A program made the translations under genes and the position numbers. A stretch of DNA of 20,000 nucleotides from an uncultured virus (IMG/VR IMGVR_UViG_3300037067_011710) (taxonomy: Duplodnaviria > Heunggongvirae > Uroviricota > Caudoviricetes), in the IMG/VR virus record IMGVR_UViG_3300037067_011710; one strand, given 5' to 3'. The notes under the pieces are model-generated. The model ran no database searches. It saw only the letters and a program-made list of their open reading frames with translations, and was not told where the DNA came from. This document shows positions 1 through 20,000 of this stretch, in pieces (position 1 is the stretch's first letter; each line of letters opens with the position of its first letter).

Positions 1-3000
1 TTTTTGAAAATACTGTCACCCCATTTAATTCCTACTGCCTTAAACAGTTTATCAACCGCATCAGCTATCTTGCCGGGATCTCTAAACTCTCCCGCGACAT
101 TGTCTACTCCAAGGTCTTTTACCGTGAGCCCGGTCTTACCAAACAGCGCCTTTACCACTGCCGGTATCTCTCCGACGCCAGTGGTGTAAAATCCGAAAGC
201 AGCATCAGCCATCTGGCTGAACATCGAGCTGAATCCGCTTCCCATGGTTGTCATGTACCCAAGGTTTTTAATAGCGGCAAACGATTTGTTTGTCGGTTTG
301 TAATTGAAAAAGCTTTTCAGTATCCCGATAAGTTCATCTTGCTTTCGAGGGTCTAACTTCTTATCCTTGATCAGTTGCGAAACATATTCTCCGATACTGT
401 CATCGATGTTGTTAATTTCAAGCTCAGTGTCTTTTTGCTGTGGATCAAAGAACTCTTTTCGAGCAGCCTTCTTAATCATGCGCTCAACATATAGCGGAAT
501 GGCAACCATCGTATCTTCGAGAAGGCTGTTCATCTCGTTGCTGATAAGTTTTACTTTGCGTTCCTTTAAATTTCCCGGCTTTGCGGCGTTCATCCTGTCA
601 CTGTATCCGCGGATGTATAGATCGAGAAATTCTTCCTGCTCTTCGTCGGTCATCGTCCGGCCGATTTTCTTTTCCTTTTCTCGAATAGCCTCATCAATGC
701 TTCCCCACTCAGGGACACCCCGTATAAAGTTCCGGTAAGCATCACGGTCCTTGCTCATGCGCGGGAAGTAGTCTTTCAAGTACCCGGTTTCATACCCTGC
801 CGCCATGAGTCTTTTAATGAGTCCGTTGAACGTATCCCGGTAGGATTTCAGTGCCTCCTCAAAACCGTACTGCTTTGCCAACTCGTTTATTTTTTCGGTA
901 TCCGCCTGCTTGGCTGCAAGGTCGAATACCCGATAATCTGCATTCGGCATTTTCTTGAGAGCGTTGAGCAGTGGGAGAATCTTGCGTGTGGCCTTGGCGG
1001 TATCGAGCGTAATCCCGCTCACGTGCTTCTGCACCTGGTCCCTGATTACCGGGGAAATATCCATCAACCTGCCGGTAGTCGTCCGGAGTAACCACCGTGC
1101 CGTTTCTCCGGCGTTACGTTTGTTGGCGTAGATTTTTCGTATTTCCTTGGCGGATTTCTTTTTATTGAAACCCTTGGCTTCTTCGTAGAGTTCGGGAAGG
1201 TCAGCCTCGGTCACCTTCTTGGAGAACATTGGTTGACCTTCTCCGGATTTCTTTGAGTATCGTATATCAGGGTATCCTCCAACTGCATCAATGATTTTTT
1301 TATCTACTTCTCTGGCGCTCTCTTTTCCCTCGTACTTGTCGCGACGTTTTTGGTATTGATATTCTTCCCTGTCCTTATTTCCATGTCTATCAATCCATTC
1401 TTTTTTTGCCGCTTCTTTGGCATCAGCGTCATCGACTTTTCCCGGCACTGTGGTTTTATGGTAGTGACCATCATAATAAAATTCAATGACGGTTTTTGGT
1501 ATAGCTTCTTTTTCTTTGATTATTGCCAACTCGTCCAATACTTTTTTGTCTATTTCTCCATTATAGCTATCAAACAAATTACGACTTTTTTTTGTGTCTA
1601 AAAAGTTTCTCCAGTATGAATTGTTCTTATTTTTTTCAGCCCACGAAGCAGCCTCTACAGCATTATCAACGTTATACGAATATTTCCATCCTCCGGTATC
1701 CTTTGGATTTTCAACAGTAAATTTATCGCCGTATAAATAAATTTTTTCTTTCTGCACAGGTTCATCATATTGGATCTTTGTTTTTATATTATTCCAATCG
1801 GGTTCCCCTTTTATCGTTACTTTCTTTCTCGTATCCCCATGCAAAACGTCTCTTTCTTTTACTATTGGAGCTTCTTTCTTCCAATCGCCATACAAATTAG
1901 CAACGTTGTAGTTGCCAAAAATATCTTCAATTGGCATTATATAATCATTGTTTTTACCTTTCATTAATATGGAATCAATACCCATTTCTTTAAGTGATTC
2001 AACTACATTACCATCCCCTATTTCTTCACCAATACTCGCTAAAAACATGATGTTTGGGTTATAGGCTTGTTGCCTAATCTGACTTTCCCTGCTCATCATT
2101 GCTTCTGTCTCTTCGGTAGACGATGAACGGGCCTCTATTTCTAATTCGTTTGGCTGCTTCGGATTTACAAGGGCGTCGTAATATGCATTAAAAACACCTT
2201 CAAGCCTATCCCTCTTACCTTTAAACTTCGCCCAATCGCTACCATTAGGCAAATCATCAACCAATTTTTCTACAACATTAATAGACATCTTATAACTTAA
2301 ATCAAGAGGATTTTTATACTTAACAACATAGGGAGTATCCTTTGACCCAACTTTCTTTCCGACAACAAACCAGCTTCCAATACCAAATCGATATTTCATA
2401 GGAAGTATTTCATCGGCAAATTCAGGAGAATAAACCAAAGCGGTTTTTGGAGTATTTAATTCTTCTATTTCATTTGACTCTATACGCTTTTCTCCACTGG
2501 TTATATTTTCGATTTCATTTTCATCGTATAAGTCTTGAATCGTTCTGGTTATTGCATCCATTCCAGCTTTTAAGTGCTTCGGTATCTCAACCCACTTTTT
2601 AAAGCCCGGTTGTTTTTGAATTGATTTAAAAAGGTCCTCCTGAAATCGTTGCTTCAATTGATCTGGAACTTCGGGATCGTCGTAATCAACTGTCGTTGCG
2701 GAAAGCTCTAGTTGTATTTCATCGAGCCTGTCCTTTTCTTTTTGAGAAAGTTTTGTTCTCCATGAAGTAAGGAAATCGTCGCCGCCAAGCCTTCTTTGTC
2801 CCGCCTCCATTATTTGTTGAGCTTCATTTTTTAAAATGTACGAAGTAGGCATTCCCTGTAATTTTTTTATTTTATAAGAAAGTTCTCTCCATTCATCCGA
2901 TTCTTCTGAAGTGAGGTTATCCATCCAATCTTCATTGTACATAACATTCATTCGCTTAAAAACGCCCTGTTGAATGTCATACATTCTTTTTTCGAGAACA

Positions 3001-6000
3001 TCTATTTCCTTTTCAGTTTCCGGCCCCCACTTAAAACGTCTCGAAGCCGCCATGCGCTGCTCCCCGGTCGCCTGTTCCCCGCCATACTCCCGGAGAATAC
3101 CCTTCAGTGTATCGCGCAGTCCTTCTACGTCCTCAACGTACTGCGCGTACCTCTTTGTGTCCTTGCGGCCTGTAAAAGCCTTGGCGAGCCTGTCGAGTAT
3201 CTCAATGAGTTTATTGATAAACGCTTGAAGTATGGTCTTGTCTTCGGCAATCGATTTCCAGAAATTCGGTTCGGCCATCATCTCGCCGGCAATGTCGGCC
3301 ATCGTCTCGTCGCGGCCTTTTCGCGCTACCAGTTCCGCACCCTTCGGTGTAAGTTTTACGGCGTCCCAGAATGCAGCTGTATAATCAGGGTTCTGCTGAA
3401 TGAAGTGGGCAAATTCGTGGTAGGCAACAAACTGAATAGGCTTCTCTGCGGTTGTGGAAATGAAGATGCGGTTCGCCACTTCGGGCACCTTCGCGCCCTT
3501 GATCATGAATCCATCAAAGGCGTACCCGAGATCCCGTTGAAGCTGCCGGTCGTCTACGTCGAGCCAGACAACCTCTTTACCGGTTACCTTTTTTATGACT
3601 TCGGAGAGTTCTTTCTGCTCTGCGGTTCCTTCGACAATGCGGATGGCTCCCGGTGCTGGCTTTTTTCCTTCACTGGCATAAACAGCTCTTGCCACTTGTT
3701 CCTCATCACGAGTAGGGGCTGTTGATTCTTTGGTCTGCCTTTCACTTGGCTTCCTCTTTTTGGAGAAGCGAACGTCCTCACCGCTCAGATACGCCTTGAT
3801 GTAACCTTCTGGGATAATGCCCTTACCGCGGGGTCCACTTGAAAATTCGTCGCGCATCATACGCCGGGCAATCTCTTTGCCGAACAGTTTGCTGAGTGTT
3901 TCCTGGTTCCACTCGGCCTCACCGTTTTTCTCGGTGTACCCGGTGCCTGTTTTTATGGAGTAGGTGAATCTTTCGCCTGCGGCATAGCGGTAAAACTCTA
4001 TCTGTTTGACGCCCTTGAGCTTTCTTTCGTCGGCTGCGGATACCGAACTAAAATTTCCGGCTTTGGTACGAATAGATTTTCCTCGCTGATAGGATATCTC
4101 GTCATTGAATTCTCGTTTGAAATTATCGTAAAGTCGTCGGGTTTCTTCATGATCGCCTTCTTTGATAGCCGTTTCGAGATCGGCTTTATACCTGTCCGCC
4201 AGATAGTAATATACTTCCTCTTTGGAATTTTTGAAGGATTCTCCGTCATCGAGTGCATCAAACCTGTCTTCGGTGATACCACCGAATAGTCGGGTAAGTA
4301 CTGGTTCTAGGTCCTTTGCAGCAATCAGGTCATCAACGATAACTTCCTGTTTCTTTGAAGACTTACTCGGTGTTTCCTGTGCAAAAAGATCGATCTGGTC
4401 GGGATTCTCATATCGCTTCAAAAAAAGCGTTTGCTGACTGCCTTCGATATTCTGATTCTCGAACATAGGCAACCCGGACATATCTGCTTCCCCGCCACGT
4501 CTTCGTTGTATCCGGCCTTTCACTTCAGCGCGTTCGATGCGCTTCTTTTCTTCACTCTCAATTTCTGACAGTGATTTTTCTCCGCCGAATACGTTTTGCT
4601 GCATCGGTTCTTTTTTGGAGAACATCACTTTCCCACTCGTATCTCTCGCCATTGTAATCTCATTGTAAACATCATCAACGGTCTGGTTGTAGAGCAAGCG
4701 GGGAGCAATGGCAGTAAGTACCTTCTGTGAGACTTCAGTACGCTTACCTGCCTTTATGTCAGCTACCGCGGTCTTTGCTTCATCCTCGGTAATCCCGGAT
4801 GCCTCAGCAAGGTCTACGGATGCAGCGCGGTCGATAAGCTGAACCACGTTGTTGTGCAACTTGGTCGCCGTCTTACCTTCGACCAATCCTTTTTTGATGT
4901 AACGATTGAGAATAACGTCGGTCACTCGGGTGTGAAGCTTTGAAAACGGCTTCGTCTTTGGAAATTCCACCTCAAGTTTTTTAAGGTCTTCCGGGCCTTT
5001 GATTATCGGTTCTTTCTGAGTAGGAGCCGTCACGGTGGGCGGCTCCAATGTTTCACCTTTTAACAGGGCTTCGGCTTGCCCTTCGGGCCTTTCGGCGGTC
5101 GTCCTCTCGGCATTTGCCCCTCCTTTCTTGCTTTTAAGGTAAGATTTAATTCTCTCAACGGTATCACCTGGGTTAATGGTAACCGGTATTCCGTCTTCGG
5201 TTTTAAACTGGTAAGTATTCTCTGTCGTATACGCTCCACCCTGCTTTGGCTGGCCGATGATCGGCTTGCTTCCAACATATTCAAGACCCCCCACTTGTCC
5301 GGCGATAGATTTTGCTACCGCTTCGGGATCTGCCTGGCGTACGTCGGCAATCTTTTTCTTCAACTCTTCAAGTCCACCTTCGCGTGTGATATTCACGTTG
5401 CTGCCGGTAAATTCATCCCGGAAAGTCATGGTTGGCTGAACTGCCTTACCCGGTCGGGCAATCCCCTCCTGTGCTCCGCCGTACTTTATGCCATCGATCT
5501 GCTTTTCGAGTTCCGGGCCGAGCTTATCAAACTCTTCGTTTTTGTTGAGGATTATTCCACGTTGTTTCCGTTCGACTTCAGGCAGCGCCCCTCCCTCATA
5601 CTGCCTTCCGCCGATCGATCGCCCTTCTTTGCCGTATGCTGATACCTCCCCAACTTCTTCTTTTGAAAGCTTCGACACGTCGGCCTTGGGTATTCCTTGC
5701 GCACGGCGTAGTACCTCCTTGGCTTCTTCTCCGGTAATACCCTCTACGATAGCCTGCTTCTCCTGGGCTGTCCCTGCTGCCTTCAGGCGTTCAACCATGC
5801 CAACTATACGATTCTCGTCAAGAGGTTCAATTACTTCGACGTTCGCTTCTGCTGGAGCTTCAGGAGCCCCCGCTCCTGCATCGTCCCGTAGATGTACGCC
5901 TTTCGCTTGTTCCCCACCAAGCCCAGCCTGTCCGCCTGTCGCTCCAATTTCTGTTCTACCTTCTTCGGCATTTGGTCCTCCTTTTGGATATTGCATTGCT

Positions 6001-7391
6001 GAAAAATCTTTTTCAACTTCGGATATCGGTTTCTGTGACGATGCTGGCGCTGCCGGTTGCTCTATCTGCTTACCCTGAATTGCTCCTATGCCCTTGGCGG
6101 CGGCACCGGTAACCCCACGGATAGCCCCGCCGCCGATCGCCCCGAAGTATGCCTGTTCGAGTGCGCTCTTTACCGACTTGTCGAGGTCAATAGCGTCACG
6201 CTGCTTTCGGTAGAACTCCGCCTTGCCCGGGTGCTTCTTTTCGGCCTGTACGAACGCTGCGTACTTCATGGCGTCGCTCAGCATTGCCTGGGTGAACTCT
6301 TCGCCACCTTCAGCGAGAGCACCTATCCCAACGTCTCCGAGTTCCCCGGCAATTCCCTTAAGCACCTTTTTAAAAATAAGCCCCTTGGCTTTATCGCTTA
6401 CCACTTTCTCAAAGGCTTTGGTCGCAACCTTTCCCTTCATCACACCTTTCACCGGAGCAAATAGGATCTCGCCGCCCATCCGCTCTACTCCGCCGGAGAG
6501 TAGACCATAGACATCGCCGTACTTATTCAGCAAATCGGGGTCATCAAGTCCCGACGCTTTGGCCTCGTCTATCCATCCGGTCTTTTCTACAAGCCCGGGA
6601 ACGGCCACTCCTGCCACCGGAACGGCGCTGAGCAGATTGGTCGCCCCCGATTCGGCGGCAACCGTAGCGGCTGCGGTAACCGTCCTGCCAATGTTTTTAG
6701 GATTCAGAGCGTCTTTGTGCTTCAGCCATTCATGGGCATCCTGTAATTCCTGTTCGGTCTGCTGAGTTTCGGGTGTGGTCGGGCCTTTGATCTTCTCGGC
6801 TGCGCCAATCATCTTTTCACCGACAGGTTTTAGAACCTTTTCGCGGATTCCCCCGGCAATCTTCTCGGCTTGTGGTTTGGTTACCGCGAGATTCTTGTAA
6901 TACTGAACGTATCCCCTCTCGGTTGCGTCGACCGGCTTTTCACCACTTTCGACAATCGATTTTCCCATGTCGTACATGGTACGTTGATTTTCGTCCAGTT
7001 CTTCATACGTTAAGGCCTTCTTGCCTTCCCCCTGAAATTCATATCCAATACCCGACATTACCCCGGCACCAGCTCGTCTCACATCTTTTGCAAAAGCTTT
7101 ACCTACTGTTTTTGGGGTGAATCCTGCAGGGGTTACCGAAGTAGGTTCAAATGGCTCTTCGAACGTCGTTGAAGTCTGGGTAGTGGAAGGTTCGGCAACG
7201 TTCGCCGGTCGGCTTACCGTTATCGGCAAGGGTTGACCAAGTCCACTTTGCGGAGGTTCTTCAGGTTCAAACTGATCTGCGGCAGAAAATATTTCCTCAA
7301 GGTCTGCATCGGTCGGGTCGTTTTCGTCATCCCAATCAAATGTAATCTCCCTTCCGGTTTCACTATTTAATACCGTGTATTCTCGCGCCAT
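1..7391 (-). CDS. Giant (>=2463 aa, 3'-truncated) putative internal virion/ejection protein of large polyvalent protein type
   Basis: ATG at 7391-7389 overlaps the upstream TAA (TAATG). Manual translation gives MAREYTVLNSETGREITFDWDDENDPTDADLEEIF... and the same frame reads ...AVGIKWGDSIFK at base 3. The track lists no terminated ORF in this frame, consistent with no stop. Motifs: Gly/Ala-rich helices with EGGEEFTQ (6288-6311), HEFAH (3405-3419), ART-like segment (~1920-2450), GYLKDYFPRM (756-785). Confidence 0.92.
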   Translation of the reverse strand, partial: MAREYTVLNSETGREITFDWDDENDPTDADLEEIFSAADQFEPEEPPQSGLGQPLPITVSRPANVAEPSTTQTSTTFEEPFEPTSVTPAGFTPKTVGKAFAKDVRRAGAGVMSGIGYEFQGEGKKALTYEELDENQRTMYDMGKSIVESGEKPVDATERGYVQYYKNLAVTKPQAEKIAGGIREKVLKPVGEKMIGAAEKIKGPTTPETQQTEQELQDAHEWLKHKDALNPKNIGRTVTAAATVAAESGATNLLSAVPVAGVAVPGLVEKTGWIDEAKASGLDDPDLLNKYGDVYGLLSGGVERMGGEILFAPVKGVMKGKVATKAFEKVVSDKAKGLIFKKVLKGIAGELGDVGIGALAEGGEEFTQAMLSDAMKYAAFVQAEKKHPGKAEFYRKQRDAIDLDKSVKSALEQAYFGAIGGGAIRGVTGAAAKGIGAIQGKQIEQPAAPASSQKPISEVEKDFSAMQYPKGGPNAEEGRTEIGATGGQAGLGGEQAKGVHLRDDAGAGAPEAPAEANVEVIEPLDENRIVGMVERLKAAGTAQEKQAIVEGITGEEAKEVLRRAQGIPKADVSKLSKEEVGEVSAYGKEGRSIGGRQYEGGALPEVERKQRGIILNKNEEFDKLGPELEKQIDGIKYGGAQEGIARPGKAVQPTMTFRDEFTGSNVNITREGGLEELKKKIADVRQADPEAVAKSIAGQVGGLEYVGSKPIIGQPKQGGAYTTENTYQFKTEDGIPVTINPGDTVERIKSYLKSKKGGANAERTTAERPEGQAEALLKGETLEPPTVTAPTQKEPIIKGPEDLKKLEVEFPKTKPFSKLHTRVTDVILNRYIKKGLVEGKTATKLHNNVVQLIDRAASVDLAEASGITEDEAKTAVADIKAGKRTEVSQKVLTAIAPRLLYNQTVDDVYNEITMARDTSGKVMFSKKEPMQQNVFGGEKSLSEIESEEKKRIERAEVKGRIQRRRGGEADMSGLPMFENQNIEGSQQTLFLKRYENPDQIDLFAQETPSKSSKKQEVIVDDLIAAKDLEPVLTRLFGGITEDRFDALDDGESFKNSKEEVYYYLADRYKADLETAIKEGDHEETRRLYDNFKREFNDEISYQRGKSIRTKAGNFSSVSAADERKLKGVKQIEFYRYAAGERFTYSIKTGTGYTEKNGEAEWNQETLSKLFGKEIARRMMRDEFSSGPRGKGIIPEGYIKAYLSGEDVRFSKKRKPSERQTKESTAPTRDEEQVARAVYASEGKKPAPGAIRIVEGTAEQKELSEVIKKVTGKEVVWLDVDDRQLQRDLGYAFDGFMIKGAKVPEVANRIFISTTAEKPIQFVAYHEFAHFIQQNPDYTAAFWDAVKLTPKGAELVARKGRDETMADIAGEMMAEPNFWKSIAEDKTILQAFINKLIEILDRLAKAFTGRKDTKRYAQYVEDVEGLRDTLKGILREYGGEQATGEQRMAASRRFKWGPETEKEIDVLEKRMYDIQQGVFKRMNVMYNEDWMDNLTSEESDEWRELSYKIKKLQGMPTSYILKNEAQQIMEAGQRRLGGDDFLTSWRTKLSQKEKDRLDEIQLELSATTVDYDDPEVPDQLKQRFQEDLFKSIQKQPGFKKWVEIPKHLKAGMDAITRTIQDLYDENEIENITSGEKRIESNEIEELNTPKTALVYSPEFADEILPMKYRFGIGSWFVVGKKVGSKDTPYVVKYKNPLDLSYKMSINVVEKLVDDLPNGSDWAKFKGKRDRLEGVFNAYYDALVNPKQPNELEIEARSSSTEETEAMMSRESQIRQQAYNPNIMFLASIGEEIGDGNVVESLKEMGIDSILMKGKNNDYIMPIEDIFGNYNVANLYGDWKKEAPIVKERDVLHGDTRKKVTIKGEPDWNNIKTKIQYDEPVQKEKIYLYGDKFTVENPKDTGGWKYSYNVDNAVEAASWAEKNKNNSYWRNFLDTKKSRNLFDSYNGEIDKKVLDELAIIKEKEAIPKTVIEFYYDGHYHKTTVPGKVDDADAKEAAKKEWIDRHGNKDREEYQYQKRRDKYEGKESAREVDKKIIDAVGGYPDIRYSKKSGEGQPMFSKKVTEADLPELYEEAKGFNKKKSAKEIRKIYANKRNAGETARWLLRTTTGRLMDISPVIRDQVQKHVSGITLDTAKATRKILPLLNALKKMPNADYRVFDLAAKQADTEKINELAKQYGFEEALKSYRDTFNGLIKRLMAAGYETGYLKDYFPRMSKDRDAYRNFIRGVPEWGSIDEAIREKEKKIGRTMTDEEQEEFLDLYIRGYSDRMNAAKPGNLKERKVKLISNEMNSLLEDTMVAIPLYVERMIKKAARKEFFDPQQKDTELEINNIDDSIGEYVSQLIKDKKLDPRKQDELIGILKSFFNYKPTNKSFAAIKNLGYMTTMGSGFSSMFSQMADAAFGFYTTGVGEIPAVVKALFGKTGLTVKDLGVDNVAGEFRDPGKIADAVDKLFKAVGIKWGDSIFK
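1215..4634 (-). repeat. Dispersed linker motif (D/K/Q)-(V/I/P)-(R/M)-(F/Y)-S-K-K within the giant ORF, 4 copies
   Basis: GKVMFSKK (4611-4634), EDVRFSKKR (3753-3779), PDIRYSKK (1248-1271) and QPMFSKK (1215-1235). Three copies share TTCTCCAA at the DNA level. Confidence 0.75.
5060..5113 (-). CDS. Nested +1-frame micro-ORF, 17-aa basic AT-hook-like peptide MPRGRPPKGPKGKPKPC
   Basis: Minus strand reads AGAAAGGAGGGGCAAATGCCG (AGGAGG, 5-nt spacer, ATG at 5113). TAA at 5062-5060. Contains the PRGRP core. Confidence 0.55.
   Translation of the reverse strand: MPRGRPPKGPKGKPKPC
5119..5124 (-). promoter_or_regulatory. Shine-Dalgarno AGGAGG for nested ORF 5060..5113
   Basis: Plus-strand cctcct at 5119-5124, 5 nt upstream of ATG. 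Confidence 0.6.
5831..5971 (-). CDS. Nested +1-frame small basic protein, 46 aa (MPKKVEQKLERQADRLGLVGNKRKAYIYGTMQERGLLKLQQKRTSK)
   Basis: Minus strand reads CAAAAGGAGGACCAAATGCCG (AGGAGG, 5-nt spacer, ATG at 5971). TAA at 5833-5831. The product looks like a basic helical protein, while the host frame here is a low-complexity linker. Confidence 0.7.
   Translation of the reverse strand: MPKKVEQKLERQADRLGLVGNKRKAYIYGTMQERGLLKLQQKRTSK
5977..5982 (-). promoter_or_regulatory. Shine-Dalgarno AGGAGG for nested ORF 5831..5971
   Basis: Plus-strand cctcct at 5977-5982, 5 nt upstream of ATG. Confidence 0.65.
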
Positions 7392-19621: not shown

Positions 19622-19697
19622 TACATTCTCTCTATGGGCTTTATTTGCCCTGCAGCGTTGACCTCCCCGGTTTGCTGCGGCGTTGTCCGGGTTAGGT

Positions 19698-20000
19698 TTA
19701 CAGTTCGGTTATCGCTCCTGCAGTATGCATTTCCAATTTGTAATTAATTGTAATCACAGGAGTAGCCATATCACTGTTCGCATTACAATTAATGGTAATT
19801 TTACCTGCTCCATCGGTAATAGTAAACGCGCTTGTTAAGGAACCCCCCGGGGCAGTAAGGGCTTCGAGCCCTACCTTTTCGATGTCGCTGTGAACCGTTC
19901 CTCCTTCGTTCACCCCGTTGAATACGCATTCACCGGAAAGTGCTTGCCGCGACGTGCCGGAAGACGCGCTGATGGTATATGAAAACTTTCCTCCTTCTGC
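19698..20000 (-). CDS. C-terminal >=100 aa of a probable tail/virion structural protein (5'-truncated)
   Basis: Frame is open to the window edge: AEGGKFSYTISASSGTSRQALSGECVFNGVNEGGTVHSDI...TAGAITEL. G/S/T-rich beta-strand pattern. Confidence 0.65.
   Translation of the reverse strand, partial: AEGGKFSYTISASSGTSRQALSGECVFNGVNEGGTVHSDIEKVGLEALTAPGGSLTSAFTITDGAGKITINCNANSDMATPVITINYKLEMHTAGAITEL

Follow-up and report, generated by a model that had tools for sequence, protein, structure and literature searches.

The closest described relatives of the arrangement reported here are the embedded spanins, in which, as for lambda Rz1 in Rz, the embedded gene shares its DNA with a linker (Kongari et al, 2018; PMC6139136). 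In the sections of that survey drawn upon here, stop-codon loss is one route discussed for embedded spanins, no family is described in which some members are embedded and others separated or overlapped, and there is no overall bias toward the +1 frame (PMC6139136). A second point of reference is the large polyvalent proteins, which, on the published account, grew by repeated accretion in the neighborhood of late genes (Iyer et al, 2017; PMC5512222); the words "overlap", "linker" and "small protein" are absent from the main text of that paper, and nested genes do not form part of the description given there.

ORF1, the larger of two small reading frames considered here, resembles the embedded spanins of the cited sections in being a small gene wholly inside another on the same strand, in the +1 frame and in flexible-linker DNA (PMC6139136), with a Shine–Dalgarno (SD) sequence, start and stop of its own. 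The window (the whole stretch of 20,000 nucleotides that was analysed, of which the last 336 bases, 19665–20000, lie beyond the contig compared) is the minus strand of a viral record of 35,075 bases, estimated to be 52% complete, and the genes studied lie on the minus strand of the window. Read in that direction, tail-like genes lead to a trio of genes, the last of which is the giant host gene (Table 1). A 72-codon ORF with two hydrophobic stretches (17398–17180, minus strand), holin-like by eye, precedes the tail genes, and promoter and terminator counts were those of shuffled sequences.

Table 1. Positions in the window of the giant host gene, the two small reading frames and their start signals.
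Feature	Position	Strand	Remarks
Host gene, giant protein	3..7391	-	2821 aa in genome record; extends past window; last of trio of 151-, 389- and 2821-aa genes
Shine–Dalgarno of ORF1, AAAGGAGG	5977..5984	-	spacer 5 nt
ORF1, 46-aa basic protein, +1 frame, host codons 474–520	5831..5971	-	MPK...AY[VI]YGT family member
Shine–Dalgarno of ORF2, AAAGGAGG	5119..5126	-	spacer 5 nt
ORF2, 17-aa K/P/G/R-rich peptide, KGKPKPC end, +1 frame, host codons 760–777	5060..5113	-	probable gene

The giant protein itself (2821 codons from its start at 7391) has no Pfam or PHROG match and no polyvalent-associated domain in its own sequence, and no close relative was found among the viral contigs searched. Four homologues share 39–75% identity over the searched region, and the polyvalent-protein domains PBECR5 and ART-PolyVal borne by homologues P0153 and P0154 suggest that the giant may be grouped with that class. 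Gene order and class together suggest a candidate ejection protein; the giant matched no ejection or internal virion protein family in PHROG, and another host of a nested copy (L269) matches an internal virion protein (PHROG 6651, 1e-16).

The first-pass annotation had singled out two identical ribosome-binding architectures in the +1 frame of this gene, each opening a short K/R-rich ORF, and both are indeed present, 858 bp apart: AAAGGAGG-ACCAA-ATGCCG (ATG at 5971) opens ORF1 (46 aa, 13 K/R, net charge +9), and AAAGGAGG-GGCAA-ATGCCG (ATG at 5113) opens ORF2 (17 aa, 6 K/R, net +6), the host frame reading KGGPNAEE and KGGANAER at the two sites as claimed. In the whole 35,075-base record there are just these two instances of AGGAGG-N5-ATGCC (reversed control, 0), and by anti-SD pairing the two sites rank second and third of the 131 +1-frame ATG/GTG codons in the giant gene. 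When the host protein was held fixed and its synonymous codons were shuffled 2000 times, 116 shuffles had two AGGAGG-N5-8-ATG sites in the +1 frame, and 1142 had two sites of the looser GGAGG/AGGAG type; the RBS motif alone is therefore weak evidence, barely beyond chance. The exact architecture arose in 4 of 2000 shuffles, a figure to be read with the post hoc choice of the pattern in mind. A comparison of +1 with +2 site enrichment, proposed as a check, turns out to mislead, as codon make-up alone yields 1.8 versus 0.24 sites (an approximately sevenfold +1 bias). The strongest SD in the giant gene (AAGGAGGT) in fact precedes a third +1 ORF (5552–5704, minus strand; 50 codons, GTG start), open in the orthologues L523 and L524, which is probably a chance occurrence: its changes relative to these relatives are host-synonymous.

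Homology, rather than the RBS motif, is what decides in favor of ORF1. A DNA pattern comprising the ORF1 start and the AY[VI]YGT motif met at least 120 viral loci, and of the 120 listed, 119 were in-frame ORFs, most of 35–65 aa. A profile HMM built from 95 copies (the 4 then known as nested left out) returned ORF1 as its sole match in the genome (E 1.5e-15). The earlier interpretation is supported to this extent: ORF1 is a genuine gene-family member that has a start signal of its own. The pattern searches pre-set the start and YxYGT codons of the family members, and as a guard against circularity scoring was restricted to codons 4–24, which no search pattern fixes; here ORF1 scored 25.0 against a maximum of -9.6 over 15,824 other stop-free +1 host windows. 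On the strength of these sequence comparisons, ORF1 belongs to a large, unnamed family of small basic phage proteins (40–60 aa, with a net charge of about +11 and two helices flanking a Gly turn); clustered at 50% identity, the profile matches (E up to 0.001) form 809 clusters. ORF1 fits this description and sits on the divergent side of the family (53–55 bits, against mostly 60–85). Its AlphaFold model is a helical hairpin (helices 3–15 and 20–34, pLDDT 84), and its ESM Atlas neighbors are unnamed viral proteins of 44–45 aa (0.94–0.95).

A word-based homologue search with ORF1 alone and a tblastn search of cultured phages with ORF1 or a typical free copy returned nothing; Pfam, PHROGs and PDB sequence scans of a 99-member alignment gave scattered weak matches only, and fold searches with the 46-aa hairpin were uninformative (best E 2.7; best Z 5.0). 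The nearest named cluster by language-model features, DUF6496 (PF20106), has proteins of similar size and scored 0.76–0.78, below trust level; membership was rejected, as 0 of the 99 alignment members match it in Pfam at E 0.1. Ten longer proteins (P0056, P0059, P0060, P0080, P0092, P0112, P0120, P0122, P0124 and P0146; 200–360 aa, G/A-rich) carry an ORF1-family N-terminus, often followed by a second Met, as might befit an in-frame fusion or a targeting tag. In a separate case, the host-frame reading of a nested copy (residues 710–742 of host L245) weakly matches PHROG 20193 (79 aa, E 0.26), which could be a wrong-frame annotation of the ORF1 family.

Four scans, two of them designed to enrich nested copies, gave 269 candidates, of which 240 passed 35 bits and collapsed to 193 non-redundant copies. 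Twenty-nine of the 193, the window's included, are fully nested, all 29 in the +1 frame, and 2 further nested-type copies are open at a contig end; in 9 the upstream gene stops at codon 2, in 7 it reads part-way in and in 12 a long -2 frame lies upstream, while 89 copies are free and 45 have flanks too short for classing. Among the un-enriched scans, 11 of 41 strong members in the genome scan were nested (10 distinct), a share of a large family that annotation misses, and 4 of 119 among the matches listed in the viral scan, with 40 loci short. In these two scans, strong SDs stand before 10 of the 13 nested copies and before 30 of the 122 others, compared with 48 of 1325 other +1 ATGs in the hosts. 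A whole-record search found one copy each in 7 of 8 records and none in the eighth (an ORF2-type host), and in a record 96% complete the sole copy is the nested one.

The hosts of nested copies have little sequence in common. Pfam domains above cut-off were found in 10 of the 19 scanned and are typical of polyvalent proteins (LPD23, ART-PolyVal, PBECR5, RadC/JAB, SNF2 or Strawberry-notch helicase, methylase, SLT). A tree was built from the 29 nested copies and 45 others drawn at random (40 columns, hence read at low resolution); on it the nesting label changes 22 times (shuffled mean 23.2) and monophyly of nested copies is rejected (p-AU 0.0005). We therefore take nesting to have arisen or been exchanged many times: as judged from this tree, it is polyphyletic. 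At five loci (L255, L264, L332, L362 and L383) an upstream gene of 300–750 codons runs, in the -1 frame, into or right through the small gene; these may be stages on the way to capture. Overlap with upstream genes shows no clear frame bias (16 in -1, versus 12 in -2), and the thought that -1 already predominates there was dropped.

A comparison of 21 nested copies, from which one with an indel was excluded, put identity at 41% for the small frame and 22% for the host frame; the small-frame value was the higher in 195 of the 210 pairs, and variation was lowest at the host wobble position. In one pair of related hosts, host-wobble differences number 4 of 47 within the nested gene versus 340 of 697 elsewhere, and in a second pair 8 of 48 versus 608 of 1027 (Fisher p about 1e-8); synonymous and nonsynonymous changes between related hosts stand at 9 and 2 in the small frame, compared with 1 and 12 in the host frame. 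At the level of the family, these substitution patterns place selection on the nested gene in the small frame. Suppressed synonymous variation, as the annotation had anticipated, is thus seen in the family's host pairs but fails in the pair formed by the window and L523, where host wobble differs at 15 of 50 positions in ORF1 and at 70 of 234 outside it.

That pair bears on whether ORF1 in this genome is a relic, in other words a formerly free gene that a fusion trapped and that now drifts, kept only as linker DNA. The unsuppressed wobble agrees with such drift, as does decay at the orthologous site of L523, in which the ORF is open but degenerate (PK lost, G29E, M31Q, 21 bits; 9 synonymous and 13 nonsynonymous differences from the window) and the invariant Gly is lost. 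This decay indicates that the nested gene is not indispensable everywhere, and it is the main counter-evidence to our account. The window itself, by contrast, keeps the family residue at P2, E6, G17, I27, G29 and M31, positions from which L523 departs, and its SD, ATG and stop are intact, with other pairs under clear selection; we consider a relic improbable. The second orthologue, L524, has an intact ORF1 (GAGGAGG-GTG start, 69 bits, the same stop as the window). The identical RBS–ATG architecture does not recur in its particulars, orthologues having GTG or other spacers. Within ORF1, host residues of L524 match at only 15 of 52 positions, but the figure rises to 198 of 234 immediately downstream, a contrast that suggests cassette exchange. 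The corresponding 234 codons separating ORF1 and ORF2 are approximately 85% conserved with ordinary host-wobble variation, and the single low-complexity linker of the first description is for this reason better seen as two linkers; ORF1 does lie in a stretch rich in G/A/P/E/Q (53–62%), as that description had it. A further relative (run X9, contig record 8, covering window 3744–7259) is approximately 90% identical up to 5964, through the SD and first ORF1 codons, beyond which 552 other letters replace 534; it also has indels immediately past the ORF2 stop.

ORF2 is a harder case. Both L523 and L524 keep its AAAGGAG, ATG, a K/P-rich 11-mer ending KKPKPC, and TAA, these signals being retained across an in-frame deletion. 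A common host helix motif, [EQ]AEA[LV]L, gives the KPKPC-stop end of ORF2 when read in the +1 frame, and ORF2 could be a compositional by-product in which host-frame KGG-x-NA and QAEALL automatically give SD, ATG and KPKPC-stop. The shuffles lean that way, the frame being open in 2000 of 2000 and open with both ATG and SD in 392; so do 19 matches of the ORF2 pattern in cellular genes, which look like chance and were set aside, and homologue P0153, which appears without the signature. Against it stands the retention in two orthologues despite a changed host reading, together with the pattern MP...KGKPKP, found at 76 viral loci (44 in frame versus 32 in the other two frames): 18 of the 44 in-frame matches are peptides of 11–34 aa and like make-up, of which 2 lie nested in related giants and the other 16 are un-nested. 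(A first version of the pattern, dominated by one unrelated phage cluster, was discarded.) Free and nested copies of an identical 12-aa peptide differ in 8 codons, all synonymously in the peptide frame, and frame-specific selection on ORF2 is at this stage only suggestive. Judged on these sequence signals, ORF2 is likely a real small gene, with the by-product reading appreciably less probable. One ORF1-type host (L305:3590, plus strand) carries a second nested ORF, of 32 aa, K-rich, with a strong SD and a Cys end, like the window's pair.

A third family, MPKQY..IRDS (first met in host L280, plus strand, codon 1034; L507–L522), is nested in the +1 frame of long ORFs at 7 of 16 loci, with host-wobble differences at 7 of 53 positions within and 665 of 930 elsewhere. 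It has no Pfam match, and a profile comparison with the ORF1 family gave a probability of 3%, leaving a relation between the two not demonstrated. The suggestion that the arrangement might be general is accordingly borne out to the extent that small genes of three families lie within giant genes in the +1 frame.

How did these genes come to lie within one another? The term "overprinted" implies a new frame written over an old host, and we find this to be probably backwards. The small family is mostly free-standing and conserved, with largely unrelated hosts, whereas the host reading is not conserved; the linker is thus the derived reading and, by this comparison, the small gene would be the older frame. 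A de novo overprinted gene was rejected on the same grounds, most copies being un-nested. Our favored reading, which we consider likely, is that ORF1 began as a small late gene in its own right, through which the giant polyvalent gene now reads, and that the same probably holds for ORF2. Repeated capture could proceed via stop-codon loss and gene fusion, or by cassette insertion or exchange in linkers. The -1 reading of K/R-rich codons would produce an acidic, E/G/A-rich spacer (median net charge -4, versus +13 for the small frame), and we infer that the giant protein tolerates the nested gene because this reading is acidic and spacer-like. Ribosomes would initiate internally on the late mRNA and make the small basic protein as a product of its own. 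SD motifs inside a gene can also stimulate frameshifts or pauses, and the two sites might instead yield a shortened giant with a basic tail; this we regard as highly improbable, given that the family starts at its own M-P in free and nested copies alike, that an orthologue has GTG in place of ATG at the same site, and that no conserved slippery site was seen.

As to function, adenovirus VII and Mu, the T4 internal proteins and the alpha/beta SASPs are small, basic or helical-hairpin proteins associated with nucleic acid, and ORF1 is likened to such basic viral core proteins and SASPs as a "works like" analogy only, with no sequence or fold match. A helical hairpin of charge +9 to +13 could bind nucleic acid in the head or during its filling, for charge neutralization or as a core protein, and ORF2 might be a minimal polycation of like kind. 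Charge, predicted fold and head-gene context make nucleic-acid binding in the head our tentative proposal, held at a little under even weight. The nearest large neighbor of free copies is a portal, terminase, scaffold or other head gene at 26 of 71 loci (hand tally), the largest annotated class (the other 45 have tail, lysis, DNA-metabolism or uncharacterised genes there), and nested copies lie in genes of a class that the cited parts of PMC5512222 describe as virion-associated. Both observations count against the rather unlikely alternative of genuine, translated genes whose products work elsewhere than in the virion, as RNA-binding or regulatory factors or late anti-defence proteins; for it speak the free copies beside DNA-metabolism, lysis or uncharacterised genes and the lack of any fold or family tie to capsids. 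If the proposed head role is correct, these proteins are small, easily made candidates for neutralizing or organizing DNA in the heads of many environmental phages. A broader possibility, on balance doubtful, is that polyvalent-protein linkers offer a lasting niche to small-gene cassettes that can be exchanged. Polycationic micro-proteins of several families with no common origin would enter and leave this niche because their -1 reading is automatically an acidic spacer; expressed from the same mRNA as the giant, they would serve as protamine-like core proteins or as charge chaperones for the co-packaged giant, a hidden virion layer across many uncultured podovirus-like phages.

Two practical points follow for annotation. 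Ordinary gene finders would miss the larger nested gene, and a hidden gene can show up as its shadow, a "conserved linker motif" of a giant phage protein (GG-x-[NDY]A or [VL]R[VL]RD, for example). No description of the MPK...AY[VI]YGT family or its nesting was found in open-licence PMC or bioRxiv texts; the supplements of PMC5512222 and small-gene catalogues may list such proteins.

An embedded o-spanin of the Rz1 type was considered and rejected, there being no hydrophobic signal in ORF1 or ORF2 and the host being a 2821-aa protein. The spanins of the cited sections are partners in one complex (PMC6139136), whereas members of the ORF1 family are variously free, overlapped or embedded; their hosts are many and unrelated, nested copies are in the +1 frame without exception, and lipoprotein or membrane features are absent. 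The gene-in-gene arrangement is itself already known; what is new relative to the spanin survey is a single family that spans free, overlapped and embedded states, so that the route to this architecture can be seen at every stage—free, overlapped, part-way and nested.
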